Of a DNA stretch of 64,000 bases, positions 2,953 through 56,906 are shown one piece after another (the stretch's first letter is position 1; each line of letters begins with the position of its first letter). Source of the stretch: Lentihominibacter sp. (GTDB lineage: Bacteria; Bacillota; Clostridia; Peptostreptococcales; Anaerovoracaceae). Below the pieces are notes generated by a model. The model ran no database searches. It saw only the letters and a list, made by a program, of their open reading frames with translations, and was not told the origin of the DNA. Location: contig JBMNMR010000001.1 in the NCBI GenBank assembly GCA_050953465.1, positions 221,976 through 285,975 of the forward strand, in the 5' to 3' direction. A program made the position numbers and the translations under genes.

Positions 2953-2968
2953 TTTACTACCTCCTCTC

Positions 2969-4717
2969 CTATTCCTTGATGATCGCACCGAACTTGCAGG
3001 TATCTATGCACTTGCCGCATTTGATGCACTTTTCGTTGTCGATAACATGCAGTTCCTTAACATCTCCCGTTATGGCATCAACAGGGCATACTTTCTTGCA
3101 AAGTGTACATCCCTTACATGCATCTGTTATCTTGTAGTCAATCAGTGCCTTGCAGGAGCCTGCTGTACACTTCTTTTTATAAATATGGTCTTCATACTCG
3201 TTTCTGAAGTATCTGATGGTTGTCAGCACAGGGTTTGGAGCCGTCTGTCCGAGACCGCACATAGAACCGTCCTTGATTTTAATTGCCAGTTCTTCCAGCT
3301 TTTCAATATCGCCGTCTTCACCTTTTCCTTCGGTTATTCTCTCAAGAATCTCCAGCATTCTCTTTGTTCCGATTCTGCAATAGTTGCACTTACCGCAGGA
3401 TTCGTCACGTGTGAAGTTAAGGAAGTATCTGGCCATATCCACCATACAGGTATCTTCATCCATTACGATCATACCGCCGGAACCTACAATCGCTCCCGTC
3501 TTATTGATATCTTCGTAAGTAACCTTCGTGTCGACCAGGCTTGCCGGGATACATCCGCCGGAAGGTCCGCCCATCTGTACTGCCTTGAATTCTCTGTCGT
3601 TCTTAATACCGCCGCCTATATCGAAAATAACTTCGCCTATTGTCATACCCATAGGAACCTCAACCAGTCCGCCCTTTTTTATCTTTCCGGCCAGTGCGAA
3701 TACTTTGGTGCCCGGTGACTTCTCGGTTCCGAACTTTGCAAAAGCCTTGCCACCGTTGTATATAATCCAGGGCACGTTTGCAAAGGTTTCAACGTTGTTT
3801 ATATTTGTAGGCTTCTGCCAGTATCCCTTGGTTGCAGGGAAAGGAGGCTTAAGTCTAGGCATGCCTCTTTCTCCTTCCAGAGACGCTATAAGTCCGGTTT
3901 CTTCTCCGCACACAAATGCACCTGCCCCGGCCTTGATTCTTATGTCAAAATCAAAACCGCTTCCGAATATATTCTTTCCGAGAAATCCCTTATCCCTTGC
4001 CTGGTCCATGGCAATTTCCAGCCTCTTGATTGCCAGAGGATATTCGGCCCTGCAGTAAATAATGCCTTCACATGCGCCCATGGCATATCCGGCTATAATC
4101 ATGCCTTCCAGCAATGCGTGAGGGTCACCCTCCAGAATGGATCTGTCCATGAATGCACCCGGGTCACCTTCGTCAGCGTTACATACCAGATACTTCTCTG
4201 TTCCCGGAGCTTCCTTGGCTGCATTCCACTTGAACCATGTCGGGAAGCCTGCACCGCCCCTTCCTCTCAAACCTGAAATCTTTATTTCTTCAATAACCTC
4301 TTCAGGTTTCATTTCCTTTAATGCTTTTTCGATTGCTTTATAACCGTTGACTGCAACATAATCATCAATCTCTTCCGGATTGATGACTCCACAGTTTACC
4401 AGTACAATTCTCTCCTGCTTGTCCACAAACAGGCGATCCTCGTCAATGATGCACTGCTCTGTCCTGCAATTACCACATGCCAGATGGTCTTCAACAATCT
4501 TTTCCACCTTATCCGGCTGAACCTTGACATATCTGGTCAGTGCGCCGCAATCGTCATAGATATCAACGATAGGTTCCAGGTAGCAGGTTCCCACACATCC
4601 GGTTACGGAAACAGGAATGTCCAGACCTCTGGCTGCAATCTGCTTCTCGAATTCAGCTGCAGTCTTTCTGGCTCCGGTGGCAACACCACAGCTACCCTGT
4701 CCAATTACAACTTTCAT
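2969..4717 (-). CDS. nuoF: NuoF/HydB-like FMN/NADH subunit (StnB/BfuB-like) with N-terminal thioredoxin-like 2Fe-2S domain and C-terminal 2x[4Fe-4S]
   Basis: SGLRGRGGAGFPT, NADEGDPGAFMDR, YICGEET-like FVCGEETGL, GGPSGGCIP, ESCGKCNYCRIG..CGLG, C-terminal CKGCTLCKKVCP and CIKCGKCIDTC. Symbol is family-level; this is not complex I. Confidence 0.93.
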   Translation of the reverse strand: MKVVIGQGSCGVATGARKTAAEFEKQIAARGLDIPVSVTGCVGTCYLEPIVDIYDDCGALTRYVKVQPDKVEKIVEDHLACGNCRTEQCIIDEDRLFVDKQERIVLVNCGVINPEEIDDYVAVNGYKAIEKALKEMKPEEVIEEIKISGLRGRGGAGFPTWFKWNAAKEAPGTEKYLVCNADEGDPGAFMDRSILEGDPHALLEGMIIAGYAMGACEGIIYCRAEYPLAIKRLEIAMDQARDKGFLGKNIFGSGFDFDIRIKAGAGAFVCGEETGLIASLEGERGMPRLKPPFPATKGYWQKPTNINNVETFANVPWIIYNGGKAFAKFGTEKSPGTKVFALAGKIKKGGLVEVPMGMTIGEVIFDIGGGIKNDREFKAVQMGGPSGGCIPASLVDTKVTYEDINKTGAIVGSGGMIVMDEDTCMVDMARYFLNFTRDESCGKCNYCRIGTKRMLEILERITEGKGEDGDIEKLEELAIKIKDGSMCGLGQTAPNPVLTTIRYFRNEYEDHIYKKKCTAGSCKALIDYKITDACKGCTLCKKVCPVDAITGDVKELHVIDNEKCIKCGKCIDTCKFGAIIKE

Positions 4718-4729
4718 GCTGTTACCTCC

Positions 4730-5248
4730 TTATGCGTTTGCTCTTATCTCATCAAGAACCTGCTTAACAGAATCCTTGGTCAGATTACCATATGTTTCAT
4801 CACTATCCACACTTTTAACCATCATTACAGGTGCAAGCGAGCAGCAGCCAAGACATGCCACATTGTTCAGTGTAAACAGTCCATCCTTTGTTGTCTCGCC
4901 ATCCTGAATTTCCAGGTGTTCACAGATAGCTTCTTCGATAACGTCAGCTCCGTTTACATGGCATGCTGTACCTTTGCACAACATTACAAGATACTTGCCG
5001 ATTGGCTGGAGCCTGAACTGTGCATAGAAAGTTGCAACTCCATAAATTTTTGCCGGCTTGATACCCGTACACTCGGAAATGTAATTAATTGCGTCTACCG
5101 AAAGGTAGCCATAGATCTCCTGAGCCTTCTGCAGAATGGTAATCAGACTGCCGGGCACTTTAGCATACTGTTCCAAGGTTGGTGCCAGTTCAGTAAACTG
5201 AGCGGCTCTTCCCTCAGTACAACCGCAGCTACAAGCTTTTTCACTCAT
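4730..5248 (-). CDS. nuoE: NuoE/HydC-like [2Fe-2S] subunit (StnA/BfuC-like)
   Basis: CKGTACHVNG and VACLGCCSLAP motifs; GVATFY; SD AGGAGG. Symbol is family-level. Confidence 0.93.
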   Translation of the reverse strand: MSEKACSCGCTEGRAAQFTELAPTLEQYAKVPGSLITILQKAQEIYGYLSVDAINYISECTGIKPAKIYGVATFYAQFRLQPIGKYLVMLCKGTACHVNGADVIEEAICEHLEIQDGETTKDGLFTLNNVACLGCCSLAPVMMVKSVDSDETYGNLTKDSVKQVLDEIRANA

Positions 5249-8235: not shown

Positions 8236-10458
8236 TTATTGAGTGTAATTATAGTCCCGCTCACGGATGTTGTCTACTGCTGTACAATTTTTATTAACTT
8301 CTCCATCGGCAATCTCAATTCCTACAGCTCCATGAAGATCGTTGCGATATACAGGTATTTTACGCTCCGACAGCTTGTTCAAAACCTCCGGTGTCGGATG
8401 TCCGAAGCTGTTCTTTCCCACCTGTATTACAGCCATTCCCGGAGAGACACGGTCAAGGAATTCATCGGATGAACTATACCTGGAGCCGTGATGCCCCACT
8501 TTCAGAATATCGGATTGTATACCATTCCCGTATTTCTCACAAAGCACCTTCTCACCTTCCTCCCCCATATCACCGGTAGTCAGCAATGTCAGGCCTTCAT
8601 AATTTATGCGAAATACCAGAGACGATTCATTTTCATCTTCTTCCTCCTTCTGCATTGCGGTATATTCCGCCTCCGTCTTTCGTTCGGGCCAAAGTACATC
8701 TATTTGCACTTTTTGTCCCGGTTCAGCCCTGTCTCCCGCATGAAGATATACTATATCATCCCGGGTCAGACCGGTTTCTTCAATTATTTCATCCTCTTTC
8801 AGCCTGTTGCAATCATATACATAAATCTTTTTTATCATCCCCTCCTGAGCCAGTTCACATATGCCGCGATAGTGATCTGTATGCAGATGGGTCACAAATG
8901 CTCCGTCAATACTTTTCACACCGTTCTTCAGCAGATACGGGCGCAAAACCTTCTTCCCCACGTTGTAATTTTCGCTGCCTCCCCCATCTATCAGGTAATT
9001 TCTTTCTTTTGAAAAGATTTCGTCATCAACCCGTATGTGAATACAATCACCCTGCCCCACATCCACAAAGACGATCTCGCATCTGCTTAACCCATCGTCT
9101 GTGACAACATGAATGGCAAAGGATATGACCACAATAACAACAAAGGTTTTTGCAATGTATGCTGTCCTGTCTTTCAGACAGCTCCCGGCACGAATTATTC
9201 TCAGTCTGCCTTCTTCTGAAAATAAAGTTAAAAGACTGAGGTAATAGGCCGCCATAAGTAATATGCTCGGACTTGTAACAGAAAATGTGGTCAGACCCTG
9301 AATTTCCAGAATTTCATTGAGCATTTGAAGAGAATTACACAGCCCTTGGAGAATCCACGAGAGAGGCTCACATCCCAGCACCATACTTACCAGACCCAGC
9401 GGTACAATCAGCCCTGCCAGTGAAATGACCGGCACATTTATCAGTACAGCTATCAGTGACAGATAATTGAAATTGAAAAGTATGTACGGACAAAGTCCAA
9501 CCTGGATGGCCAGACCGGACAAAAACACCCCTTGATAAAATGAACGAAAGTAGGGTGTAATTAATGCCATTGTCAGTATGGCCAGAAAGCTCATCTGAAA
9601 CCCCGCATTGAAAAGCATAAAGGGATTAAAAGCCAGAATAACTGTCATCACCAGAAATGCTGCAGAGGGCATATCATATCTGCGCCCTGTCATTTTAGCG
9701 AATGTATGCAAGAACACCATAAGTACAGCCCTTACCACCGATGGGGAGAATGAAGCAAGAATAGCATAGCAGCCGAAAAAGACAGATAGAAATGCGAAAA
9801 ATACTTTGCCTCTGCGCCATGGCCAGAGTTTGAGGATAAATCCATAGATAATTCCGATGTGCAGCCCGCTTACTGCCAGAATGTGAGCCGTTCCGTTTTT
9901 CTGAAACGTTTCCAGCACTTCCTCATCCAGCATGCCTTTATCTCCAAACAGTATAGCTCTCATCATGGCTGCGGTTTCAGCTCCTGCTTCATCCTCCAGT
10001 CTATCGAGAAACCTTTCTCTCTTTATGTATAGAACTCCCGAAAGCGTCTTCTCTCCCCTGATAATATCAAGACTCGTCACCGTCATTGTGTACCTGATTC
10101 CAAGGGATTTGAGGTATAAGGCGTAATCAAAACACCCGGGATTACGTCTGCCCGGAGGACTTTGCAATATCCCGCTGACCTTAATTTCATTTCCCGGGAT
10201 TCCGTATTTACAGGCTGTCTCCACATTGGCATCGTAACATTTCAGCAGAATACGGGTATCTCCCGTCTCCAGAATAAGCTGAATACTCTCCTCACCGGTC
10301 GCATTCCTTTTTATGTCAGCATCCTTAACAGTGCCGGTAATTGTTCTGCTCTCCTCAACCGGAGGTTCCGTATCCTGCCCAATCCCCAGGCAGTAATATC
10401 CAATAAAAATAACCGCAGCAAAAACCACGGCAACATACATCATCGGTCTGCGCGGCAT
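8236..10458 (-). CDS. comEC: ComEC/Rec2 DNA internalization competence protein
   Basis: RNPGCFDY, HILAVSGLHIG, GFQMSF; C-terminal metallo-beta-lactamase domain (DVGQGD, THLHTDH, KVGHHGS, NSFGHP). Confidence 0.95.
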   Translation of the reverse strand: MPRRPMMYVAVVFAAVIFIGYYCLGIGQDTEPPVEESRTITGTVKDADIKRNATGEESIQLILETGDTRILLKCYDANVETACKYGIPGNEIKVSGILQSPPGRRNPGCFDYALYLKSLGIRYTMTVTSLDIIRGEKTLSGVLYIKRERFLDRLEDEAGAETAAMMRAILFGDKGMLDEEVLETFQKNGTAHILAVSGLHIGIIYGFILKLWPWRRGKVFFAFLSVFFGCYAILASFSPSVVRAVLMVFLHTFAKMTGRRYDMPSAAFLVMTVILAFNPFMLFNAGFQMSFLAILTMALITPYFRSFYQGVFLSGLAIQVGLCPYILFNFNYLSLIAVLINVPVISLAGLIVPLGLVSMVLGCEPLSWILQGLCNSLQMLNEILEIQGLTTFSVTSPSILLMAAYYLSLLTLFSEEGRLRIIRAGSCLKDRTAYIAKTFVVIVVISFAIHVVTDDGLSRCEIVFVDVGQGDCIHIRVDDEIFSKERNYLIDGGGSENYNVGKKVLRPYLLKNGVKSIDGAFVTHLHTDHYRGICELAQEGMIKKIYVYDCNRLKEDEIIEETGLTRDDIVYLHAGDRAEPGQKVQIDVLWPERKTEAEYTAMQKEEEDENESSLVFRINYEGLTLLTTGDMGEEGEKVLCEKYGNGIQSDILKVGHHGSRYSSSDEFLDRVSPGMAVIQVGKNSFGHPTPEVLNKLSERKIPVYRNDLHGAVGIEIADGEVNKNCTAVDNIRERDYNYTQ

Positions 10459-10515
10459 TCCCCGTTCTCCTTATTACCCTCCCCTGTTATTTAGTTTTCC
10501 TTTATTTGATTCCAT

Positions 10516-10544
10516 ATATTACCATTTTATTCGCTGCATGGCAA
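10516..10544 (-). promoter_or_regulatory. Putative sigmaA promoter of comEC
   Basis: Minus strand TTGCCA-17 bp-TAATAT with extended TG. Confidence 0.5.
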
Positions 10545-10567
10545 GAACAGGCTATGAAAACTTCCGA

Positions 10568-10805
10568 TTTCTGCACAAAATCCACTTTTCACTGTGTTTT
10601 TGCAGAAAAAACAATGTGCATAGCTAAATGAATATTCATGCATATCTCATAACCCGACTTAAACAAACTAATTTGCTGTCCGCGAATTAACTAACCAGAT
10701 AAGCTTGTGGTCGTCATGTTTTTCTATGGGTAAGATGAAGAAACGGATTTTTGTACTTAATATCTTTCTGTAAAAAAGCCCGGAAAAACATGATTTTTAC
10801 AGAAA
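10568..10805. repeat. Two related 41-bp inverted-repeat sites
   Basis: 10568-10608 TTTCTGCACAAA-N17-TTTTTGCAGAAA and 10765-10805 TTTCTGTAAAAA-N17-TTTTTACAGAAA. Confidence 0.6.
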
Positions 10806-10986
10806 CTGAAAATGACATATTCCATATGCTCATTGTGTTTAAATGTCCATGCGTAAAAAAATAACTAACGAGGTATAAAAATACAAAACCTTGGTATTCC
10901 CTGGCATTCATGGTCAGGATTGCAGTTGAATGGTATCGCTGAGTTAGAGTATAATCATCGTAAGAATATTACAGGAGAATGGGAAT

Positions 10987-11172
10987 ATGAATTACGGAAA
11001 GAAACTTAAATTCATTCTGATTGCAGGCGGCGGCATGTTTATTGCGATTACAGGAATATCCTTCAAAACGGGATATATTCCGGGACATTCAGATTTCAGT
11101 GCATATATCCTTCTTGTACTGGGAACTTTCTTTACTATTTTCGGTCTTATTCAACTCAGTAAATACAAATAG
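10987..11172 (+). CDS. Small two-TM membrane protein, unknown function (61 aa)
   Basis: SD AGGAG; promoter TTGAAT(10926)-18-TATAAT(10950); two hydrophobic segments; ends at a shared terminator. Confidence 0.7.
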   Translation: MNYGKKLKFILIAGGGMFIAITGISFKTGYIPGHSDFSAYILLVLGTFFTIFGLIQLSKYK

Positions 11173-11190
11173 TGTCTCAGCAATGCAAAA

Positions 11191-11226
11191 AAGGAGCTGC
11201 TACATTAATCAATGCGGCAGCTCCTT
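11191..11226. terminator. Intrinsic terminator after nfnB, probably bidirectional
   Basis: AAGGAGCTGC...GCAGCTCCTT stem with a U-tract on the minus strand. Confidence 0.85.
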
Positions 11227-11243
11227 CGCCTTATTCCAAACCC

Positions 11244-12653
11244 TTATTTCAGATACTCATCGATGGACTCAGCCGCAGTCTTACCTGCCCCCATGGCCAG
11301 TATTACCGTCGCTGCACCTGTTACCGCATCGCCGCCGGCAAAGATACCTTCGCGGTTTGTAGCAGCTCCGTCATCTGTACCGATTCCACCGTGATCGTTG
11401 GCTTCCAGATCTTCTGTTGTTTCCAGAATCAGTCTGTTCAGCCTTGTGCCGATTGACATAATCACACTGTCAACTTCCAGAACATAATTTGACCCTTCAA
11501 TCATCACCGGGCGTCTTCTTCCCGAAGAGTCAGGTTCTCCCAGTTCCATCTCAACACATTCCAGACCGGTTACACGACCGTCCTCGTCTCCTAGTATCCG
11601 TACAGGGTTTCTCAATAGCTGGAAATCTATTCCTTCCTCTATAGCATGATGAATTTCCTCGGCTCTCGCAGGGATTTCCCCCATTGAACGTCTGTACACT
11701 ATGTAAACCTTCTCGGCACCCATCCTCATGGCACATCTGGCAGCATCCATAGCAACGTTTCCGCCGCCCACAACTGCTATCTTTTTGCCTTCAGGAACAG
11801 GCGTATCGTACTCATCCAGATAGCCCTTCATCAGATTTATTCTGGTCAGATATTCGTTTGCCGAGCAAACGCCCAGAAGGTTTTCCCCGGGGATGTTCAT
11901 AAATGAAGGCAGACCTGCTCCCGTTCCTACGAATACTGCATCAAAACCTTCTTCCTCAAGAAGCTCATCAACGGTTTCCGCTCTTCCAATAACAGCGTTG
12001 TTGATAAATTTAACACCTTTCTCTTCCAGCTTGCCCACTTCTGCAGCAACGATATCCTTAGGAAGTCTGAATTCGGGAATTCCGTAGGCAAGTACACCGC
12101 CCAGTTTATGCAAAGACTCATATACGGTTACCGCGTAGCCTTTATTGGCCAGGTCGCCGGCACATGTGAGACCGGCAGGACCCGCTCCTACAACAGCAAC
12201 CTTCTTGCCCTTTCCTTCCACGGCTCTTTCCGCATCGGAGTATTCACAAATTTCCTCTGACTCCTCTTCGTGCTCTGCATGCCAGTCGGAAACGAATCTT
12301 TCAAGTCTGCCGATTGAAACCGGCTCACCCTTGACCCCCCTCACGCAAACACCTTCGCACTGATTTTCCTGAGGGCATACACGTCCGCAAATTCTCGGCA
12401 ATGAGTTTGTTCCGGCAATAATCTGGTACGCTTCTTCAAATTCACCTTCTGCCACCTTGGCAACAAACTCAGGAATCCTGACCATTACGGGACAACCACC
12501 GGTACAAGGCTTGGTTCTGCACTTAAGACATCTCATGGCCTCATTGATAGCCATTTCAGGTGTGTAGCCTTCAGCAACTTCTTCGAAGTTTCTTGCCCTT
12601 ACCTGAGGATCCTGCTCAGGCATAGGGTTTTTTACGGGTTTCAGATTAATCAT
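11244..12653 (-). CDS. nfnB: NfnB: large subunit of NADH-dependent reduced ferredoxin:NADP+ oxidoreductase (GltD-like)
   Basis: RCLKC..PC..GCP, CGRVCPQENQCE..C, GAGPAGL, YGIPEFRLPK, GGGNVAMD, YRR, GGDAVTGAATV; overlaps nfnA by 8 nt. Confidence 0.9.
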   Translation of the reverse strand: MINLKPVKNPMPEQDPQVRARNFEEVAEGYTPEMAINEAMRCLKCRTKPCTGGCPVMVRIPEFVAKVAEGEFEEAYQIIAGTNSLPRICGRVCPQENQCEGVCVRGVKGEPVSIGRLERFVSDWHAEHEEESEEICEYSDAERAVEGKGKKVAVVGAGPAGLTCAGDLANKGYAVTVYESLHKLGGVLAYGIPEFRLPKDIVAAEVGKLEEKGVKFINNAVIGRAETVDELLEEEGFDAVFVGTGAGLPSFMNIPGENLLGVCSANEYLTRINLMKGYLDEYDTPVPEGKKIAVVGGGNVAMDAARCAMRMGAEKVYIVYRRSMGEIPARAEEIHHAIEEGIDFQLLRNPVRILGDEDGRVTGLECVEMELGEPDSSGRRRPVMIEGSNYVLEVDSVIMSIGTRLNRLILETTEDLEANDHGGIGTDDGAATNREGIFAGGDAVTGAATVILAMGAGKTAAESIDEYLK

Positions 12654-13494
12654 GATATCTTACACCTCCTGTCAGTCTGCATACATGAGCTCTGTCCCGA
12701 GCCTCCTGTTCTTCATAATAGGCATTTCTTCTTACCATATCGTCCCAGTCAATCAGGGCACCGTCAAATTCAGGTCCGTCAACGCAGACAAATTTGTTTT
12801 CCCCGCCAACAACACATCTGCAGCAGCCGCACATTCCCGTACCATCAACCATATATGCGGTAAGAGAAGCTACGGATGGAATGCCGTAATCGGTTGCCAT
12901 CTGACATGTGAACTTCATCATCAAAGGCGGCCCAACCGCTACTATTTCATCATATTTGTTGCCGGCTTCAATAAGCTCTTTTAGTTTGTCTGTAGTAAAT
13001 CCCTTATAGCCATAGGAGCCATCGTCAGTTGTAATGTAAAGTCTGTCGGTGCCGGCTCTGAACTCGTCTTCAAGAATAACATGCTCTTTGCTCTTGTATC
13101 CGGCAATCATGTCAACCTCAACTCCTGCAGCATGCATTCCGCATGCCACCGGAAATGCCAGAGCATTACCTGTACCGCCGCCAACCACACAGACCTTTTT
13201 AAGCCCTTCCATTTCCGTAGGCTTTCCCAGAGGGCCAACAACATCCATAAGATAATCGCCTTCTTCCAGCTGATTCATAAGCATGGTTGTTCTGCCCACG
13301 GCTGCAAAAATCAAATCAATGGTTCCGGCCTCCGAATCATGTCCTGCCATAGTAAGAGGGATTCTTTCGCCGTATTCATCGGTTCTGAGAATAATAAACT
13401 GGCCCGGCTTAGCCTTTCTTGCCACCATAGGAGCGTCAATTACAAGCCAAGTCATGTTTTCATTAAGAACTCTTTTCTTCAAAACTTTATACAT
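12646..13494 (-). CDS. nfnA: NfnA: small FAD/[2Fe-2S] subunit (PyrK/SudB-like)
   Basis: KPGQFIILR..GERIPLT, GPLG, VGGGTG, DGTGMCGCCRC..CVDGPEF. Start set at ATG 13494 from SD spacing. Confidence 0.9.
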   Translation of the reverse strand: MYKVLKKRVLNENMTWLVIDAPMVARKAKPGQFIILRTDEYGERIPLTMAGHDSEAGTIDLIFAAVGRTTMLMNQLEEGDYLMDVVGPLGKPTEMEGLKKVCVVGGGTGNALAFPVACGMHAAGVEVDMIAGYKSKEHVILEDEFRAGTDRLYITTDDGSYGYKGFTTDKLKELIEAGNKYDEIVAVGPPLMMKFTCQMATDYGIPSVASLTAYMVDGTGMCGCCRCVVGGENKFVCVDGPEFDGALIDWDDMVRRNAYYEEQEARDRAHVCRLTGGVRYHD

Positions 13495-13511
13495 TGAATT
13501 CACTCCCTTCT

Positions 13512-16500
13512 TCAGTTATTCTCAAATTCTTTTAGCTGACTCTTAAGTTTTTTGTATCTCTTAACCGCATAGTCTTCTGCTTTCGCAAAGAGTTTCGCAG
13601 CTCTTTCAGGATTCTTAAGTTTCAGTGAGCTGTATCTTACTTCTCCCATAAGGAAATCTTCGTGTTTTTCAGTCGGAGGTGCACTGTCGAGAGACAGTGG
13701 ATTTTTCTTTTCGAGAACTGCCGCCGGGTTATATCTGAACAGGTTCCAGTACCCGGCTCTTACAGCATTCTTCATCTGCAGCATGGACTTATTCATTCCG
13801 GCATCAATACCGTGGTTGATACAAGGAGCATATGCGATGATAAGTGAAGGACCGTCATAGGCCTCAGCTTCCCTGATTGCCTTCAAGGTCTGTGCCGGAT
13901 TGGCACCCATAGCTACCTGGGCAACATATACATATCCATAAGCCATAGCAATCTGTGCCAGATTTTTCTTTGTTACTGCCTTACCTGCGGCTGCAAATTG
14001 TGCAACCGCACCGATAGGAGTTGCCTTTGAAGATTGTCCTCCGGTATTTGAATAAACCTCCGTGTCAAAGACCAGAACATTGATGTTTTCTCCGGAAGCC
14101 AGAACATGATCCAGTCCGCCGTAACCGATGTCATATGCCCAGCCGTCACCGCCAAAGAGCCACATTGACGGTTTCGCAAGCATGTCCCTGTTCTCCACAA
14201 CATACCTGGCATCTTCGTCCGCGCTTCCTTCACATGATGCAGCCAGAATGTCACCCATCTTTCCGGCGCATTCCGAATTATCCATATTGTCAAGCCATGC
14301 TTTTGCAGGCTCTGAGAATTCTGCCTTTTCGGCCAGTCTCTCAACAACATTCTTCATGTGAGCTCTTCTTGCCTTTACCGCTATCGCCATACCATAGCCG
14401 AATTGTGCATTATCTTCGAAAAGGGAATTGCCCCATGCCGGCCCCTTTCCTTCCGCATTAACAGTATACGGTGATGATGGTGCCGACAGACCCCATATTG
14501 ATGAACATCCCGTAGCATTTGCAATAAACATCCTGTCGCCATACAGCTGAGTAACCAGTTTAGCATATGGAGTTTCTCCACATCCAGGGCAAGCTCCCGA
14601 GAACTCCAGCAGCGGCTGAAGGAATTGTGACTTTTTAACATTTTCATCACTTCCCAGCCCGGTCTTTGTTCCAATCCTGTGGAACAGATGGTCAAAGTCA
14701 GCCTGAGAAGCATTCTGGTTGGCTTCAGCGTCTACCATTGTCAGCGCCTTCTGCCTTGCCGGACAAACCTCTGCGCAGGAACCGCAGCCTGTACAGTCAA
14801 GACCACTGATTCCAATTGCAAAGAATTTGCTCTCATCATCTCTGAACGGCACCGAAATACCTTCATATGCATGCGCTTCTTCGGCATCCAGCACAAACGG
14901 TCTTATTACAGCATGAGGACAAACATATGAACACCAGTTACACTGCATACACTTTTTGGAATCCCACTGCGGAATGTCAGTCGCAATTCCTCTCTTTTCG
15001 AATGCTGCTGTTCCTGACGGAACATGCCCATCTGCAAAATCCTTAAATACGGATACAGGAATATCGTCTCCGTACATTCCGTTTGTAGGCTTAAGAACAT
15101 TGTTGATATAATTCGTATGGTGCTGATCTCTTCCTATTGCAACAGTCTTTGTAATATCCCCTTCGGCATCAGCCCATGATGGTGGAACCTCAACCTTATG
15201 AACACTGCTCACACCGGCATCTATTGCGGCGAAGTTCATGTCGACAATTTTCTTACCTTTACTACCGTAAGTTTTTTCTATTGCTTCCTTCATATACCTG
15301 ACAGCATCTTCTATAGGAAGGATATTTGCCAGCTTAAAGAAAGCCGCCTGAAGAACAGAATTGGTTCTGTTTCCCAAACCCATTTCCTTTGCAATTGTTA
15401 CGGCATCACAGGTGTAGAACTGTACATCGTTCTGTGCTATATATTTTTTGACATTACCGGGCAGTTTGTCTTCAAGCTCATCATCACTCCACGGGCAGTT
15501 AAGAAGGAATGTTCCACCCCTCTTTATATCTTCTACCATGTAATATCTGTCAAGGTATGATGCCTTATGGCATGCTACAAAGTCAGCCTGTTTAACATAG
15601 TATGTGGATCTGATCGGCTCATCCCCAAATCTCAGATGAGAAATAGTAACTCCTCCTGATTTTTTTGAATCGTACTGGAAATATGCCTGAGCGTATTTTT
15701 CGGTATTGTCGCCGATAATCTTGACACTGTTCTTGTTGGCACCGACAGTACCGTCAGCACCCAGCCCCCAGAATTTGCAAGCCACAGTGCTTTCATGAGC
15801 AACGTCCGGGTTATGTGAACCCTCAATTGAAAGGCAGGTCACATCGTCTTCTATTGACAGAGTGAATTCAGGTTTTGGTTCTTCAGACCACAGATTTTCA
15901 AATACGGCTAGCACATCCCCCGGCTGTACGTCCTTGGAACCCAATCCGTATCTGCCTCTTGCGATGTAACTGCCGGCAAATTCAGTATTCCGAACAGCAG
16001 AGACAACATCCAGGTAAAGGGGTTCACCTATTGCACCCGGTTCCTTGGTTCTGTCAAGAACCGCCATCTTCTTTACTGTTGAAGGAATCTCAGACACAAA
16101 ATGCTTTGCTGAAAACGGTCTGTAAAGTCTTACGGAAATCAGACCAACCTTCTTGCCTTGAGCGTTAAGATAATCCACTATTTCTTCGGCGCAGTCACAG
16201 ACTGAACCCATAGCGATAACAATCTCCTCTGCATCAGGTGCTCCGTAATATTCATACGGCTTGTACGGTCTTTCCCGCTCCACTCTTTCGTTTACCCTGT
16301 TCATGCAATCGATTATTACGTCAATCTGTTCCTCATAGTTTTCGTTGCATGCTTCTCTGTGCTGGAAGAAAGTCTCAGGCTGCTCAGCTGAGCCAATACA
16401 ATGCCCATTGTTCGGGTTCAACGCATTAGCCTTGAATCTCTTAACCGCATCCATATCCAGCATATCTTTCAGTTCATCGTAGTCCCATGTGTAAATTTTC

Positions 16501-17039
16501 TGCTGTTCATGTGATGTTCTGAATCCGTCGAAGAAATGCAGTACAGGTACCTTCCCTTCGATTGCGGACAGGTGTGCCACAGCGGACAGATCCATAACCT
16601 CCTGCGGGCTTCTTGAAGCCAGCATTGCAAATCCCGTCTGCCTGCATGCCATAACATCCGAATGATCTCCGAAGATATTCAGAGCATGTGTCGATATTGT
16701 TCTTGCTGCAACATGGATAACCGTAGGTGTTTCTTCTGCTGCCAGCTTAAACATATTTGGTATCATCAGAAGCAGTCCCTGTGATGCGGTGAATGTTGTA
16801 GTAAGAGCACCCGCTGCAATGGAACCGTGTACAGCACCTGCCGCACCGCCTTCGGATTCCATCTCCACCACTTTTACTTCTTCCCCAAAGATATTCTTCC
16901 TGTTCACACTTGCCCATGCATCAACATTTTCAGCCATTACAGATGATGGTGTGATAGGATAGATCGCTGCAACTTCAGAGAACGCATATGCAACATGTGC
17001 AGCAGCTGTGTTGCCGTCCATTGTCTTTCTGGATCTCAT
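13512..17039 (-). CDS. nifJ: Pyruvate:ferredoxin (flavodoxin) oxidoreductase, divergent paralog 1
   Basis: MDGNTAAAH, YPITPS, GLGADGTVGAN, CMQCNWCSYVCPH, CTGCGSCAEVCP, GACPGCGETPY, GGDGWAYDIG, YSNTGGQ. Start ATG 17039 with SD AGGAG. Confidence 0.95.
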   Translation of the reverse strand: MRSRKTMDGNTAAAHVAYAFSEVAAIYPITPSSVMAENVDAWASVNRKNIFGEEVKVVEMESEGGAAGAVHGSIAAGALTTTFTASQGLLLMIPNMFKLAAEETPTVIHVAARTISTHALNIFGDHSDVMACRQTGFAMLASRSPQEVMDLSAVAHLSAIEGKVPVLHFFDGFRTSHEQQKIYTWDYDELKDMLDMDAVKRFKANALNPNNGHCIGSAEQPETFFQHREACNENYEEQIDVIIDCMNRVNERVERERPYKPYEYYGAPDAEEIVIAMGSVCDCAEEIVDYLNAQGKKVGLISVRLYRPFSAKHFVSEIPSTVKKMAVLDRTKEPGAIGEPLYLDVVSAVRNTEFAGSYIARGRYGLGSKDVQPGDVLAVFENLWSEEPKPEFTLSIEDDVTCLSIEGSHNPDVAHESTVACKFWGLGADGTVGANKNSVKIIGDNTEKYAQAYFQYDSKKSGGVTISHLRFGDEPIRSTYYVKQADFVACHKASYLDRYYMVEDIKRGGTFLLNCPWSDDELEDKLPGNVKKYIAQNDVQFYTCDAVTIAKEMGLGNRTNSVLQAAFFKLANILPIEDAVRYMKEAIEKTYGSKGKKIVDMNFAAIDAGVSSVHKVEVPPSWADAEGDITKTVAIGRDQHHTNYINNVLKPTNGMYGDDIPVSVFKDFADGHVPSGTAAFEKRGIATDIPQWDSKKCMQCNWCSYVCPHAVIRPFVLDAEEAHAYEGISVPFRDDESKFFAIGISGLDCTGCGSCAEVCPARQKALTMVDAEANQNASQADFDHLFHRIGTKTGLGSDENVKKSQFLQPLLEFSGACPGCGETPYAKLVTQLYGDRMFIANATGCSSIWGLSAPSSPYTVNAEGKGPAWGNSLFEDNAQFGYGMAIAVKARRAHMKNVVERLAEKAEFSEPAKAWLDNMDNSECAGKMGDILAASCEGSADEDARYVVENRDMLAKPSMWLFGGDGWAYDIGYGGLDHVLASGENINVLVFDTEVYSNTGGQSSKATPIGAVAQFAAAGKAVTKKNLAQIAMAYGYVYVAQVAMGANPAQTLKAIREAEAYDGPSLIIAYAPCINHGIDAGMNKSMLQMKNAVRAGYWNLFRYNPAAVLEKKNPLSLDSAPPTEKHEDFLMGEVRYSSLKLKNPERAAKLFAKAEDYAVKRYKKLKSQLKEFENN

Positions 17040-17043
17040 GTTT

Positions 17044-18342
17044 CTATCTCCTTTCATCTAACTTTATTGCTTCGCGCTGGAGGTAATTATATTCAGGAAC
17101 TTCTCTTTCCTTAATAAGACCTCTTGAGCAAACATACTGACAAACTCCGCAGTTGACACATTTATCATGATCTATATACGGATGCCCGTCAGTCATTTCA
17201 ATTGCACCATTCGGACAGTTATCGGCACAGTCCCCGCAATCAATGCATCCCATGCCACAGACTTCCATTCTTCTGTCGGGATCTGCCTGAGACTGGCAAG
17301 CAGCCTGCTTGACTCCGATATACGGTACCATTTCAATCTTGTTCTTCGGACACTCTCTGTAGCAGTCACCACATCCTACACACTTGTCCGGATCAACCTG
17401 AGCAAGTCCGTATTTATTCGTTATCGCGTCGTATCTGCATACCTTGGTACAATCCCCGAATCCCATGCATCCGTATTCGCATACATCCAGACTGTCCAGG
17501 TCTACCTTCATATCAACTATGGTTCTGCAATCCTCATACCCGGCCTTTTTCAGCTTGGTGTTTCCCATTGCACCACCGGTACATCTAACCAGTGCAACTT
17601 CCTCCTTGGCCTCGGTTAAATCGTGCATAGTATCAACGATAATCTTTTTCCGGCATTTGACTGTGCAGGTTATACAACCCTCACACTTGCTGTAATCAAT
17701 TCTGGCGTATCTGCCGTCCACCTTGTCGCCCATAACCATTTCTATGGCATCTTTCGGACAAGCCAGAGCACAGTCGCCACAGCCGATACATCCGTATCCG
17801 CAAACAGTCAGGGTTTCCTGCTCGTTATCCTTTGAGGAACAAGGTATAAAATTTGTTGCATCCGCAGGAACCATTTCTATAATTTCACGGACACATCCTG
17901 TCAGACAGGCCTCACATCCGGAGCATTTTTCCCTATCGATTACAACGTTACCGTCTTCCAGTGACATTGCCTCGAACTTACATCTGTCGATACAGGTTCC
18001 CAATCCGAGGCAGCCGTAACTACACTCTCCTTTGACAAAACCCTCTTCATCCGCTGCATCACAACTATCGCAGCCGGCCGCAATGAAGCGCTCTTTGCCT
18101 GCTGCATCCCCTGCACATTTGATGAAAGCAATTTGAGACTCCACCTCCACAGGTTCAACGCCCATAATCTCTGCTATTGCCGCTACTGCCTCAGTTTTTG
18201 CCGCGGGACAAAGCGTGATAGGCCCTCCTGCTGCTATTGCTTCTGCGCAAGCAGCACATGTCGGATGTCCGCACCCACCGAATCCGCCGCAATCAACGCC
18301 CGGCAGGAGCGTCAATATTCGCTTTGCTGATTCTATCGTCAT
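17044..18342 (-). CDS. RnfB-like polyferredoxin without a membrane anchor, internally duplicated
   Basis: N-terminal LLPGVDCGGFGGCGHPTC..C FeS domain, then two copies of the RnfB body with four Cys clusters each. No N-terminal TM helix. Confidence 0.82.
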   Translation of the reverse strand: MTIESAKRILTLLPGVDCGGFGGCGHPTCAACAEAIAAGGPITLCPAAKTEAVAAIAEIMGVEPVEVESQIAFIKCAGDAAGKERFIAAGCDSCDAADEEGFVKGECSYGCLGLGTCIDRCKFEAMSLEDGNVVIDREKCSGCEACLTGCVREIIEMVPADATNFIPCSSKDNEQETLTVCGYGCIGCGDCALACPKDAIEMVMGDKVDGRYARIDYSKCEGCITCTVKCRKKIIVDTMHDLTEAKEEVALVRCTGGAMGNTKLKKAGYEDCRTIVDMKVDLDSLDVCEYGCMGFGDCTKVCRYDAITNKYGLAQVDPDKCVGCGDCYRECPKNKIEMVPYIGVKQAACQSQADPDRRMEVCGMGCIDCGDCADNCPNGAIEMTDGHPYIDHDKCVNCGVCQYVCSRGLIKEREVPEYNYLQREAIKLDERR

Positions 18343-18404
18343 TTCTTACCTCCGTCTTTATATATCTTGATTTATATGTATTTTGTATACGCTGACACGT
18401 TTTT

Positions 18405-18432
18405 ATTCTATCACTTCCGTCTTTTCAGTCAA
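18405..18432 (-). promoter_or_regulatory. Putative promoter of the polyferredoxin-PFOR-nfnAB operon
   Basis: Minus strand TTGACT-16 bp-TAGAAT with extended TG. TTGTATACGC at 18383-18392 lies just downstream. Confidence 0.55.
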
Positions 18433-18448
18433 GTATCGGTTCCCTTTT

Positions 18449-20752
18449 TTACTCATCCATTAATCCCCCCTGAATGAGCTTATCAACCATATTGTTGCCT
18501 CCCATAAGCCATATCATATCCCCTTTTCTAAGTACAGTATCCGTATCCGGATTAACCACAGGAAGATCTCCCCGTTCTATCCCGATAACTGTCCCGGAGA
18601 AACGATTCCTGATATCGCTGTTTTTTATGGATTTGCGTATTAATTCAGAACCGCTTTCCAGCTTAATCGGTACACATACAAGCTGCTCTTTTTCCGGAAC
18701 GCCGTGAAATATCTGTCCATAGATATAGTCTTTCAGAATCATATCTTCAGTATCCGTATATTCTATATATTCGGCTTTCTCAAGAAAAATAGTACATCCA
18801 TCCACTTCGTCCCAGCTGCCCAGCATATGAAGCTTATCTCCGTATTTTACAACTTCGTCTGCTTCCGGCATATTTATAAACTTACCGTTCCTGATAATCC
18901 TTACTATGGTCACAAAGAATTCTCTTCTGCTGGTAAAATCGGAAATAGTCATTTCAAATTCCGGATCGACAATCTCAAACTCCACAATATACATGGATTC
19001 ATTAAGCCATCTGTAGTCATCCTTGTGACCTCTTTCTCTTTTCTGTTTATCAAGAATTCTTTCAGAAAAATTTGCTATGAATTTACTTTCCATTCCTATT
19101 GTAACCCCATTGAGCCAGCTGGATCTTATAATAAAATAAATCGGAATTGCTGAGACGAAAACCAGTATTATAAATGGTATATTGAATATTGTGCGCAAAA
19201 CCAATGCCATAAAGCAAGCTGCAATCAGTATTTTTATCGCCTTCACAGTCAGCAGAGGCAGGCGGTTAGCCCTGTGCTTGATCCAGAGTTTGACAAAAAG
19301 AGCGTTGTTTGTTCCGTGCATGAAATTCATGAAAGGTATCATCGCCGCAAGAATAATCGCTGCCGTAACAGCATTCCTGACATGCTCCGAGCTAATCAGA
19401 CCCGGCATTGCCGGAGCAAGGAACTTGAATCCCGTCCAGTATATTACAAAAAGCATTACGGAACAGATTAGCGTTCTCTGAGCCACCTTTTTTATATATT
19501 CATTCCAGTCAGCGTCTTTGGTATTTTTACTCTGTTGCTCAGAAGTGTTTTTCCTTAAAAATATTTTTGTTTTCGCCGGAAGTTTGCGTTCAAGCAGCAC
19601 ATATACTTTTTCCGCATTCTTTATGAACACCGGTGTCATGAAAGCAGTTATAACCGAAACACATACGATAATAGGATAGAGGAAATCGCTTATTACACCC
19701 AGACTCAGTCCCAGGGTTGCAATAATAAATGAAAATTCACCTATCTGAACCATACTGAATCCTCCGCGTACAGCCGTATGCAAGGTCTGCCCGGAAAGCA
19801 GTATTCCTATGGTTGCAAAGGTCAGCTGTCCAAAGATAACCACAACGGTAAGTATAAGGATAGGAACTATATATTCAATCAAAAGTGCCGGAACAATCTT
19901 CATACCCACGGATACAAAGAAGATGGCACCGAAAAGATCCTTGATAGGCTTTATCAGATTCTCAATTCTTACAACCTGTACCGTTCCTGCAACAACCGAA
20001 CCTGCCAGAAATGCTCCAAGTGCAGAAGAAAAACCTATGTAGTTGGCGATTATAACCATCCCCAGGCAGAAGCCCATCATGATGATGACGATTATCTCAT
20101 CGTTCATCAGAGGCGCAACCTTTTTCAGAAAGCTCGGCACCAGGTAAATGCTGATAATAAGCCATATTACCAGATACATCAGCATAATGCTGATTTTTCC
20201 CGCCATTTCCAGGCCTGACCCGCCCTGACCAACGGAAAGTGTTGAAAGAACAACCATCATAAAAATGCCCGCTATATCTTCGAGGATAAGCGCGCTGAGA
20301 ATAAGCTGTGTAAATTTTTCTTTTTTCAGATTGTATTCTTCGTAACTTTTAAGAATTATCATGGTAGACGACATTGAAATCATGCCGCCCAGGAAGATGC
20401 AATCCATCTTTCCCCATCCCATAAGGTCCCCGACACCGGCTCCTATGATAATCATAGCTGCCATAACTGTTACAGCAACAGTAAAAGCACTGCCGCCAAC
20501 TGTGGCAATCTTTTTGAAGCTGAATTCAAGCCCCAGACCGAACATGAGAAAGATTACACCCATTTCAGCCCAAACTGTAATATCCGCCTGATCTACAATA
20601 GTCGGCATATATTCAAAGTTGGGACTTATCAGAAAGCCGGCTACAATATACCCGAGAACAACCGGTTGCTTAAGCTTCTTAAAAATCAGAGTAACAATGC
20701 CGGCTACAATCAGAAGGAGTGCCAGGTCAGTAATGAGGCTGTCGAGATTCAC
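18449..20752 (-). CDS. CPA2 family cation:proton antiporter with C-terminal TrkA-C (RCK_C) domains
   Basis: QPVVLGYIVAG, GLGLEFS, SMSSTMII, LEDIAG, LGAFLAG, FFVSVG, QIGEFSFII; soluble C-terminal tail with IGIERG..NPD. GTG start with SD GGAG. Confidence 0.9.
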   Translation of the reverse strand: MNLDSLITDLALLLIVAGIVTLIFKKLKQPVVLGYIVAGFLISPNFEYMPTIVDQADITVWAEMGVIFLMFGLGLEFSFKKIATVGGSAFTVAVTVMAAMIIIGAGVGDLMGWGKMDCIFLGGMISMSSTMIILKSYEEYNLKKEKFTQLILSALILEDIAGIFMMVVLSTLSVGQGGSGLEMAGKISIMLMYLVIWLIISIYLVPSFLKKVAPLMNDEIIVIIMMGFCLGMVIIANYIGFSSALGAFLAGSVVAGTVQVVRIENLIKPIKDLFGAIFFVSVGMKIVPALLIEYIVPILILTVVVIFGQLTFATIGILLSGQTLHTAVRGGFSMVQIGEFSFIIATLGLSLGVISDFLYPIIVCVSVITAFMTPVFIKNAEKVYVLLERKLPAKTKIFLRKNTSEQQSKNTKDADWNEYIKKVAQRTLICSVMLFVIYWTGFKFLAPAMPGLISSEHVRNAVTAAIILAAMIPFMNFMHGTNNALFVKLWIKHRANRLPLLTVKAIKILIAACFMALVLRTIFNIPFIILVFVSAIPIYFIIRSSWLNGVTIGMESKFIANFSERILDKQKRERGHKDDYRWLNESMYIVEFEIVDPEFEMTISDFTSRREFFVTIVRIIRNGKFINMPEADEVVKYGDKLHMLGSWDEVDGCTIFLEKAEYIEYTDTEDMILKDYIYGQIFHGVPEKEQLVCVPIKLESGSELIRKSIKNSDIRNRFSGTVIGIERGDLPVVNPDTDTVLRKGDMIWLMGGNNMVDKLIQGGLMDE

Positions 20753-20789: not shown

Positions 20790-21959
20790 TTATATCACAT
20801 TATATACCTGTTCAGTACTGTTTTCTCCCATTAATTCTGCAGCCAGGCTTTTGATATCCGCTCCGAAATGTTTCTCAAGCAAAATCTCTTTTTTGCCGTT
20901 TTCCGTTATGCCGTATTCCATGCTTCTCACGATCATAGACCTTTCCAGCCACGTCTCTTCACCGCATTCATCAATCTTGCCTGCCGATGGCTCTTTTCCC
21001 GGTTTTACATCATTGAGAATCTTAAGGGCTCTGTCTATTACCTTCTCGCCTGCACAGCACAGCACATGTTTGAGATATTGTTCTTCCCGACCTGTAACTT
21101 GCCTGCTCCGGGTTACGAAACAAATCCGGTCGGCCATCTTCAGTGCACCGATTCCTGCATCTGTGAGACATCCTGAAATATCCATTATTATAGTATCGTA
21201 TCTGCTGCTGTCCATAAGAGACACAATGAACCTTTGTATTTCTGTTTCGGTCAGTTCTCTCAAAGGATTCTTCCCGTTGGAAGGGGGAAAAGTTTCTATT
21301 TCGTGAACGTCCTTCACTACATAGCTGTCCAGAAACGGAATTTCCATGCCGTCACTCACGGAACTTTTTTCTTCATTGAGGAGTCTGTACAGGTACTCTC
21401 CCGTACTTTTATGTCCCGGCAAATAATCAAAGAACACACTTGAAGACTCCACATCCTCCATGCTGAAATACAGAACCTTCTTTCCCTTAAAGCGCAGCAT
21501 TTCCTGTGCCAGAGCCATTGCCAGTGTAGTGCATCCGGCACCTCCCTCCCAGGAAGCAAATCCGTAAAGCTGAACATTTTTCTTTTTGACATAAACTGCC
21601 TTCCTGCCCGTGAGAAAGGAATATATTTCAAAAACAGAGGACATCAGGTTTTGTGCGGAGGTGTACTTGTAAAGGCTGAATTTTTTCTCCCCGTAATCGC
21701 TTCTGACCGATGATACTTTGTCTGTAAGATACACGATATTTCCTCCATAGGCACCTTTAACCTCATCACCGGCCCACAGAACAATATCAAAGCAATCGTA
21801 ATATACACCCCGCCCCTTGTATAGTGACCATTCACCGATGAACTCTCTGCTGTCAAAGACCCTGATGGCTACGTCTCCACATGCAGCGAGCAAAGACATG
21901 CTCAGTGCCTTTCCGTAATCCCTGTCTGAAGATACCACTGCGATCGTAATTTTATCCAT
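20790..21959 (-). CDS. MinD/ParA-like ATPase with N-terminal receiver-like domain (CpaE/TadZ-like)
   Basis: SWEGGAGCTTLAMALA deviant Walker A, VLYFSME, YDTIIMD. Confidence 0.6.
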   Translation of the reverse strand: MDKITIAVVSSDRDYGKALSMSLLAACGDVAIRVFDSREFIGEWSLYKGRGVYYDCFDIVLWAGDEVKGAYGGNIVYLTDKVSSVRSDYGEKKFSLYKYTSAQNLMSSVFEIYSFLTGRKAVYVKKKNVQLYGFASWEGGAGCTTLAMALAQEMLRFKGKKVLYFSMEDVESSSVFFDYLPGHKSTGEYLYRLLNEEKSSVSDGMEIPFLDSYVVKDVHEIETFPPSNGKNPLRELTETEIQRFIVSLMDSSRYDTIIMDISGCLTDAGIGALKMADRICFVTRSRQVTGREEQYLKHVLCCAGEKVIDRALKILNDVKPGKEPSAGKIDECGEETWLERSMIVRSMEYGITENGKKEILLEKHFGADIKSLAAELMGENSTEQVYNVI

Positions 21960-56856: not shown

Positions 56857-56906
56857 AATATCCCCCTTTTTAGGCGATGTCTTGTGCATAAATTAGTACA
56901 TTTTCT

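Follow-up and report, generated by a model that had tools for sequence, protein, structure and literature searches.

We analysed a gene cluster in a stretch of 64,000 nucleotides from Lentihominibacter sp. (assembly GCA_050953465.1, contig JBMNMR010000001.1, positions 221,976 to 285,975), which we call the window in its full length. The cluster is a run of four genes on the minus strand, encoding a polyferredoxin, PFOR, NfnA and NfnB, with one promoter-like site at its 5' end and one strong terminator at its 3' end. Based on the sequence, we propose that these four genes form one transcription unit whose products would make up a pyruvate/NADP(H) electron-transfer module. The genes and their signals are the following (positions of the window; ORF, open reading frame).

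18405..18432, minus strand: promoter-like site, TTGACT, 16-nt spacer, TG-extended TAGAAT (10 of 12 consensus matches; consensus match alone)
18342..17044, minus strand: polyferredoxin gene, 432 aa (ORF list and family/structure matches)
17057..13512, minus strand: PFOR ORF; likely gene 13512..17039, 1175 aa, start ATG at 17039
13503..12646, minus strand: nfnA ORF; likely gene 12646..13494, 282 aa, start ATG at 13494
11244..12653, minus strand: nfnB, 469 aa, with an 8-nt overlap with nfnA
about 11187..11227, minus strand: intrinsic terminator, 11-bp GC-rich stem with an inner stem, then UUUUUU

The starts at 17039 (PFOR) and 13494 (nfnA) are considered likely because the family models begin at ORF residues 11 (TIGR02176) and 4 (NF004862). 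Counted from these starts, a gap of 4 nt separates the polyferredoxin gene from PFOR and a gap of 17 nt separates PFOR from nfnA, which in turn overlaps nfnB by 8 nt. The Shine-Dalgarno sequence of PFOR (GAAAGGAG) lies inside the final codons of the polyferredoxin gene. These tight junctions suggest translational coupling and were counted as support for a single module. The first-pass annotation of this DNA had described the same packing of four genes between one promoter and one terminator, and both gaps, the overlap and the two signals were all found again when we re-read the sequence.

The promoter-like site sits within a 106-nt spacer that follows the upstream CPA2 antiporter gene. The terminator hairpin reaches -24.6 kcal/mol (z = -3.92) and none of 200 shuffled sequences folded as well; it was missed by the consensus scan because its stem is interrupted. 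A 61-aa hydrophobic ORF (MNYGKKLKFILIAGGG...) at 10987-11172 on the plus strand converges on nfnB and appears to use the same terminator, which is probably bidirectional. We found no convincing ORF and no Rfam match in the rest of the 785-nt gap (spacer 10459-11243) before comEC, and the Rfam scan of positions 10400-18600 detected no RNA family, riboswitch or leader.

The polyferredoxin and its partner enzymes

The first product of the cluster, which contains 46 cysteines, is most similar to RnfB. Its best solved relatives by sequence are the RnfB chains of C. tetanomorphum (7ZC6_B, E = 2.6e-37) and A. woodii (9ERI_B, E = 2.1e-34), with residues 8-239 aligning to residues 39-264 of the former. 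The same two chains came first, followed by the FwdF polyferredoxin, in a fold search with an AlphaFold2 model of mediocre quality. The best NCBIfam models are also RnfB models, both scoring under their cut-offs (NF005503, 238.5 bits vs 252; TIGR01944, 63.1 vs 68.7). Finally, Pfam matched the N-terminus to PF04060 (residues 13-46, 26.6 bits vs a cut-off of 23) and found many Fer4 matches further on. The protein can be divided into four parts.

18145..18321, minus strand: FdI domain, residues ~8-66 (PF04060 'FeS', Cys18/24/29/32/45), one predicted [4Fe-4S]
17608..18144, minus strand: RnfB body copy 1 (FdII+III), residues ~67-245, 20 invariant cysteines, five predicted [4Fe-4S]
17107..17607, minus strand: RnfB body copy 2, residues ~246-412, 20 invariant cysteines, five predicted [4Fe-4S]
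17047..17106, minus strand: C-terminal tail VPEYNYLQREA..., with V415, P416, E417, Q422 and A425 invariant

The two bodies are a tandem duplicate (34% identity over 169 aa, E = 7e-31). RnfB of C. tetanomorphum possesses a membrane helix (residues 1-29), a mobile FdI with one [4Fe-4S] cluster and FdII+III with five (PMC9588780). Because the polyferredoxin is homologous to FdI and FdII+III and carries the body twice, we predict 11 [4Fe-4S] clusters (1 + 5 + 5). The first-pass annotation had listed eight cysteine motifs: all of those quoted are present, but eight is too low as a count of cofactors. Across 16 orthologues that share 54-79% identity with the window protein, 45 of the 46 cysteines are invariant. 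The conserved tail that follows the second body is a candidate docking helix.

The protein had been described as lacking a membrane anchor, and two lines of evidence agree with this. Its Kyte-Doolittle hydropathy in 19-residue stretches peaks at 1.30, whereas the RnfB of a relative reaches 2.75, and RnfB models and solved chains align to it only from their residue 37-43 onward, past the membrane helix. The predicted pI is 4.67, compared to 7.26 for the RnfB of a relative. Because the polyferredoxin is acidic and the relative's RnfB is neutral, its charge resembles that of ferredoxin, the donor, rather than that of a ferredoxin receptor. The RnfB of A. woodii bears a basic 'fishing hook' for ferredoxin (PMC11889175). 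We propose from these sequence features that the polyferredoxin is a cytoplasmic RnfB paralogue in which the membrane helix was lost and the FdII+III body with its five clusters was duplicated.

The second gene encodes a PFOR of the single-chain nifJ type (TIGR02176, 1714 bits vs a cut-off of 911, residues 11-1172) in which all domains were found (POR_N, PFOR_II, POR, EKR, Fer4 and TPP_enzyme_C); it scores 1440 bits against the Moorella enzyme 6CIN_A. A second, stand-alone PFOR lies at window positions 53311-56889 on the minus strand; it shares 54% identity with the module PFOR and has the higher TIGR02176 score (1928 vs 1714 bits). The motifs YPITPSS, HVAAR, FGDH, GDGWAYD and YSNTGGQ, which we take to lie around the thiamine-diphosphate (TPP) and substrate sites, were checked by eye and are common to both paralogues. 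A third nifJ-type PFOR, with about 50% identity to that of the module, is found on contig 2 of the genome (G000:C2:62391-66071). A frame of 1184 aa at the window start was also considered as a second PFOR; this assignment was wrong, and the frame is the GltD/NuoG-like fusion of an Stn-like operon.

The products of the last two genes were identified as follows.

12646..13494, minus strand: nfnA product, FAD/NAD(H) and [2Fe-2S] subunit (NF004862, 5JCA_S, 4YLF_A)
11244..12653, minus strand: nfnB product, two [4Fe-4S], bifurcating FAD and NADP(H) site (4YLF_B)

NfnA reaches 378 bits with NF004862 and matches the small subunit of P. furiosus NfnI (5JCA_S, E = 6e-83) and the T. maritima subunit 4YLF_A (E = 4e-72). 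NfnB reaches 564 bits with TIGR01316 and matches 4YLF_B of T. maritima (E = 1e-169) and 5JCA_L (E = 4e-147). A long N-terminus, an overlapping nfnA upstream and an arginine near the bifurcating FAD set NfnB apart from stand-alone Fnor (PMC12221290). The module NfnB has the long N-terminus and an arginine in the motif 'IPAR' (residue 330), which matches Arg333 of P. furiosus by alignment position only. Judged by sequence, gene order and overlap, the module nfnAB is an ordinary NfnAB.

Distribution of the module, Rnf and natural fusions

Relatives of the polyferredoxin are encoded in 262 species-representative genomes, the nearest being that of a Candidatus Copromorpha metagenome-assembled genome (97% identity). 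Named carriers are Lentihominibacter, Emergencia, Aminicella, Aminipila and Anaerofustis; Aminipila, Anaerofustis stercorihominis, Lentihominibacter faecis and Aminicella lysinilytica are cultured. We examined the best 80 loci, counting gene order in the 46 loci with at least 6.5 kb of downstream sequence. PFOR lies directly downstream of the polyferredoxin gene in 77 of the 80 loci, and the contigs of the remaining three end within 138 nt. The full order polyferredoxin-PFOR-nfnA-nfnB was found in 44 of the 46 loci, the other two (L076 and L080) presenting polyferredoxin-PFOR-NfnB-like without nfnA. Nine more loci came from eight genera of the family sample described below; eight of them have the full order and one (L101) is without nfnA. 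The synteny search that the first-pass annotation had suggested therefore returned a strongly conserved four-gene order.

In the three variants without nfnA, the NfnB-like gene directly follows PFOR (L076 13454-14845, L080 9747-11129, L101 3023-4405). The NfnB-like proteins of L076 and L080 have a cysteine in place of the arginine of the 'MPAR' ('PAR') motif. This substitution suggests that bifurcation was lost and that these proteins may be plain ferredoxin:NADP+ reductases; indeed, NfnB alone can be a simple ferredoxin:NADP+ reductase (PMC12221290).

Flanking genes decay much faster than the order of the module over the same range of loci. The upstream gene (window 18449-20752, minus strand) encodes a CPA2-family cation:proton antiporter and is adjacent in 41 of the 66 loci with enough upstream sequence, mostly in closer relatives; it was rejected as a part of the module for this reason, and the adjacency looks like local synteny. 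Across the compared loci, no recurring gene was found downstream of the module. Further upstream, a 389-aa protein (window 20790-21959, minus strand) has no NCBIfam match and is conserved 5' of the CPA2 gene in 29 related loci.

The family of the polyferredoxin appears to be narrow, because a class-wide sample of 399 Clostridia genomes yielded matches within one family alone (the source genome and one other family member). Among 1.84 billion representative proteins, few clusters present the tandem architecture, and matches under ~170 bits are ordinary anchored RnfBs.

The genome from which the window comes (2.07 Mb in 2 contigs, 96.9% complete, from a gut/digester anaerobe) has no match to the RnfD/E family (PF03116) anywhere. 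When the RnfC/D/G/E/A/B proteins of a relative were searched against it with tblastn, no RnfD, RnfG, RnfE or RnfA was detected, and the RnfB query matched only the polyferredoxin and other Fer4 proteins. The absence of rnf genes, first noted for the window, extends to this whole genome. The polyferredoxin is therefore an RnfB paralogue and, in the source genome, neither a subunit nor an adaptor of Rnf.

We also sampled 81 genera of the same family. RnfD is found in 52 of them and the polyferredoxin in 17, of which 14 also have RnfD; the three without RnfD are the source genome, G022 (99% complete) and G080 (73% complete). G022 carries two full four-gene modules on different contigs (L095 and L096). 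Another genome, G024, carries a complete rnfCDGEAB in addition to the module, and the 290-aa RnfB of this rnf operon possesses a membrane helix and a single body. The separate anchored rnfB that the first-pass annotation proposed to look for is thus found in relatives, inside its own rnf operon.

These distributions bear on the possibility that the polyferredoxin acts in Rnf, either as its RnfB subunit or as an adaptor linking PFOR and Nfn to the complex. RnfB is its closest family and Rnf is present in 14 of the 17 module-bearing genera. However, the protein has no membrane helix and remains below the cut-off of NF005503, and the Rnf operon of G024 is served by its own anchored RnfB. In addition, the FdI-type domain (B8) of RnfB passes electrons to the RnfA/E cluster (PMC11889175), and this contact domain is missing from the polyferredoxin (373-396 aa) in 6 of the 17 genera, where the operon is otherwise unchanged. 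Docking onto Rnf, which the first-pass annotation had offered as an alternative, is contradicted by the absence of RnfD, RnfG, RnfE and RnfA from the source genome and of RnfD from G022 with its two modules; the possibility that the gene is the genome's only rnfB, working as the Rnf subunit, is likewise excluded for the source genome by the absence of Rnf. We therefore give next to no credence to a role in Rnf, and by sequence such a role is refuted for the source genome unless a full rnf operon is located in the ~3% that the assembly lacks.

Three natural fusions, mutually diverged, join an RnfB-type polyferredoxin to NfnB: P0121 (1138 aa), P0122 (1126 aa) and P0128 (1025 aa). The first two were retrieved by a search with the polyferredoxin region that allowed long targets, and the third by an exhaustive search. 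The N-terminal part of P0121 and P0122 contains two RnfB bodies and the VPEY...Q tail (45% identity), their middle is 27-28% identical to PFOR residues ~693-1119 but has lost the GDG...N TPP motif, and their C-terminal part is a complete NfnB (50-55% identity). In P0121, the conserved tail directly precedes the PFOR-like segment. In P0128, the two parts established are RnfB-type Fer4 repeats at the N-terminus, 43% identical to body 1, and NfnB at the C-terminus.

Such natural fusions provide indirect evidence of physical proximity between the polyferredoxin and NfnB. In our own reading of the sequences, P0121 and P0122 would be derivatives of the operon that keep polyferredoxin and NfnB as one electron-input unit. 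Their loci (L103 9001-12417 and L105 8001-11381) share a 609-615-aa FAD_binding_2/Succ_DH_flav_C flavoprotein, a 73-aa ferredoxin, MFS/TauE transporters and lactonases, and no PFOR was found in this gene context. It is possible that P0121-type fusions provide a NADPH-fed electron supply for the neighbouring flavoenzyme. A further candidate, P0126 (an ADI domain with a polyferredoxin C-terminus), was set aside as a probable chimeric gene call.

Proposed electron transfer and its alternatives

The reading that we favour is that the polyferredoxin is a dedicated and reversible electron conduit between PFOR and NfnB, and we give it about as much credence as doubt. In this mechanism, the polyferredoxin would replace diffusible ferredoxin, connecting the distal [4Fe-4S] cluster in domain V of PFOR with the two [4Fe-4S] clusters of NfnB; it could be a bound wire or a carrier specific to the operon. 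PFOR would convert pyruvate + CoA to acetyl-CoA + CO2, and the two low-potential electrons would pass via the polyferredoxin into NfnB, where, together with NADH oxidised at NfnA, they would reduce 2 NADP+ (confurcation). The net reaction would be pyruvate + CoA + NADH + 2 NADP+ -> acetyl-CoA + CO2 + NAD+ + 2 NADPH. The chain is expected to be reversible, which would allow NADPH-driven pyruvate synthesis. We infer from genomic evidence the electron transfer between these partners, their physical association and the direction in vivo.

A stronger version, which we advance tentatively and judge somewhat unlikely, is that PFOR, polyferredoxin and NfnAB form a stable cytoplasmic supercomplex coupling pyruvate oxidation or synthesis to flavin-based confurcation or bifurcation with NADH and NADPH, without diffusible ferredoxin. 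The duplicated body would then span the distance between the PFOR dimer and Nfn, and domain VI of PFOR would be the docking site of the tail.

Several observations weigh against a private conduit. The source genome encodes an ordinary 55-aa 2[4Fe-4S] ferredoxin, so that such a wire is not strictly needed. The module nfnAB is the sole nfnAB of this genome, and 7 of 16 related genomes have no nifJ-type PFOR besides that of the module; because they are often sole copies, PFOR and NfnAB must also serve general metabolism, and they probably exchange electrons with the free ferredoxin pool as well. The more general claim that the module PFOR is a dedicated extra paralogue was rejected based on the same 7 of 16 genomes. 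Enzymes with nothing in common but a metabolite-like carrier would also be expected to be linked in an operon. The AlphaFold2 model of the polyferredoxin, with a predicted local distance difference test score (pLDDT) of 69.5 and a predicted template-modelling score (pTM) of 0.48, served for the fold search alone. Finally, the polyferredoxin appears to be dispensable in at least one lineage, because G006 keeps PFOR-nfnAB without it.

This last case came from the inspection of eight genera that have nfnAB without the polyferredoxin: nfnAB stands alone in seven and follows PFOR in one, G006. There (L106 5194-11129), a module-type PFOR-nfnA-nfnB is 66-70% identical to that of the window, and the gene upstream encodes a 175-aa cysteine-rich protein and not a polyferredoxin.

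The first-pass annotation had suggested a dedicated cytoplasmic wire from PFOR to NfnAB. The gene order, the anchored paralogues found elsewhere, the acidity of the protein and the fusions all fit a wire, but 'dedicated' is too strong a word because of the sole nfnAB, the often sole PFOR, the lineage without polyferredoxin and the free ferredoxin.

Part of this evidence would also suit a general hub ferredoxin, that is, a preferred high-capacity acceptor of PFOR that feeds Nfn, [FeFe] hydrogenases, the Stn-like complex and, where present, Rnf, its place in the operon representing co-expression. The polyferredoxin is acidic and ferredoxin-like, it always lies directly 5' of PFOR, and this PFOR is the sole one in 7 of 16 genomes. 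The source genome also has HydABC-like clusters, which, like its Stn-like operon, need ferredoxin, and a branched distribution is known from MvhB, which has branching paths to other partners (PMC13580544). However, none of the 46 + 9 informative loci is without an NfnB or NfnB-like gene, those that have lost NfnA or FdI included, the fusions link the polyferredoxin covalently to NfnB and not to other consumers, and a normal small ferredoxin is encoded for general traffic. We consider a general hub to be unlikely.

The conduit might also work mainly in reverse, with NfnAB bifurcating 2 NADPH into NADH and low-potential electrons, and the polyferredoxin feeding PFOR as a pyruvate synthase in the anabolism of amino-acid fermenters. 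The three PFOR paralogues, of which the stand-alone one scores higher with TIGR02176, might share the work among them, and the source genome has no Rnf to supply reduced ferredoxin. In addition, Methanococcus encodes its anabolic POR together with the polyferredoxin PorE (PMC13768988), and methanogens have polyferredoxin-wired complexes from bifurcation to CO2 fixation (PMC13580544). Yet a purely anabolic specialist is difficult to reconcile with a module PFOR that is the sole nifJ-type enzyme in 7 of 16 genomes, and most carriers do have Rnf. Sequence cannot show direction, and the PFOR motifs that we checked are common to both paralogues. We rate this reversed main role as quite improbable.

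Two other sets of redox genes lie in or near the window. An Stn/Bfu-like operon occupies positions 1-5248 on the minus strand, with a NuoF-like gene at 2969-4717 and a fusion of HoxU-like, GltD/NfnB-like and NuoG/Fdh-like parts at 1-2988, whose frame leaves the window and reaches 1179 aa in the genome. It represents a second, unrelated NAD(P)H/ferredoxin enzyme ~6 kb from nfnAB. About 10 kb past the window end (L002; G000:C1:296398-297195, minus strand), the genome encodes a second polyferredoxin, which has 265 aa and six CxxCxxCxxxC motifs and is 32-36% identical to parts of the module polyferredoxin.

Comparison with known systems

The first-pass annotation regarded this arrangement as undescribed, and our literature searches on soluble RnfB, on polyferredoxin with NfnAB and PFOR, and on Anaerovoracaceae returned no description of such a module. 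Databases label the polyferredoxin '4Fe-4S binding protein'. A 2019 review of Nfn names PFOR among the neighbours of nfn in a figure legend, with no comment (PMC6405883), and the archaeal PorE is the only polyferredoxin mentioned in a 2026 review of PFOR (PMC13768988). In the searchable literature, we found no bacterial counterpart, with PFOR or Nfn, of wires fixed by a polyferredoxin, and no characterised Nfn or Fnor reported with a co-encoded polyferredoxin and PFOR.

If the proposed conduit is true, bacteria would have a means of obtaining NADPH through pyruvate oxidation, or pyruvate at the expense of NADPH, without drawing on the pool of ferredoxin, and the input subunit of Rnf would have been recycled as a soluble wire. 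The four genes would also be a compact cassette with which the supply of NADPH or the synthesis of pyruvate could be engineered in anaerobes. If the polyferredoxin is merely a specialised ferredoxin, the gain would be a modest one in annotation for the '4Fe-4S binding protein' entries. Cultured carriers exist, so that the proposal is directly testable.

RnfB of the Rnf complex (7ZC6_B, 9ERI_B) presents the same FdI (PF04060) and five-cluster FdII+III body, and its cysteine ligands align one to one with those of the polyferredoxin. In contrast to RnfB, the polyferredoxin has no membrane helix, contains the body twice and is acidic rather than neutral or basic. Moreover, it is not encoded with rnfCDGEA, it occurs in Rnf-less genomes and its FdI is dispensable in some orthologues.

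A similar logic is found in several systems in which electrons from a thiamine-diphosphate 2-oxoacid oxidoreductase reach a pyridine nucleotide within one enzyme system. PadEFGHI (phenylglyoxylate:NAD+) and the NADP+-dependent KorABC-type 2-oxoglutarate oxidoreductase of Azoarcus/Thauera combine a 2-oxoacid:ferredoxin oxidoreductase with a GltD/NfnB-like flavoprotein, and the eukaryotic pyruvate:NADP+ oxidoreductase is a PFOR fused to a P450-reductase-like domain. To our knowledge, electrons are passed on in these systems by a small ferredoxin-like subunit or through direct fusion, and we know of none with a bifurcating NfnA or an RnfB-derived chain of 11 clusters.

NfnAB (4YLF; 5JCA, NfnI) corresponds to genes 3 and 4 of the module, whereas the characterised Nfn and Fnor enzymes use free ferredoxin. 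The variants without nfnA (L076, L080 and L101) resemble the situation of NfnB alone or Fnor (PMC12221290). The PorE polyferredoxin gene lies in the POR cluster of Methanococcus maripaludis and Methanothermobacter; its product sometimes co-purifies and its role is unsettled (PMC13768988). The two cases are alike in placing a polyferredoxin gene within a pyruvate oxidoreductase gene cluster, but PorE is associated with a four-subunit archaeal POR, has no RnfB-type domains, being described as unrelated to the extra subunits known so far (PMC13768988), and has no Nfn in its cluster.

Finally, the polyferredoxins MvhB and FmdF link a bifurcating Hdr to the CO2-fixing Fmd without free ferredoxin in Mvh/Fdh-Hdr-Fmd supercomplexes; MvhB, which was long taken for a soluble carrier, has 12 clusters and grew by duplication (PMC13580544). 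MvhB and FmdF (PDB 9SW6, 7BKB, 5T5I) share with the module polyferredoxin a long [4Fe-4S] chain, co-encoded partners and lengthening by domain duplication. The similarity between the sequences is limited to generic Fer4-level matches (MvhB, E = 1.2e-14 over sub-stretches; FwdF, TM-score 0.13), which places our polyferredoxin outside the MvhB/FmdF family by sequence; by analogy, MvhB/FmdF may nevertheless be considered its closest functional analogue. Those proteins are archaeal, consist of plain 2x[4Fe-4S] ferredoxin modules and have Hdr and Fmd as partners, whereas the module described here combines an RnfB architecture with Nfn and PFOR. Their complex has been demonstrated and the one suggested here is deduced from genomes alone; if a supercomplex is indeed formed, it would be a bacterial counterpart of the Hdr-polyferredoxin-Fmd machines of methanogens.

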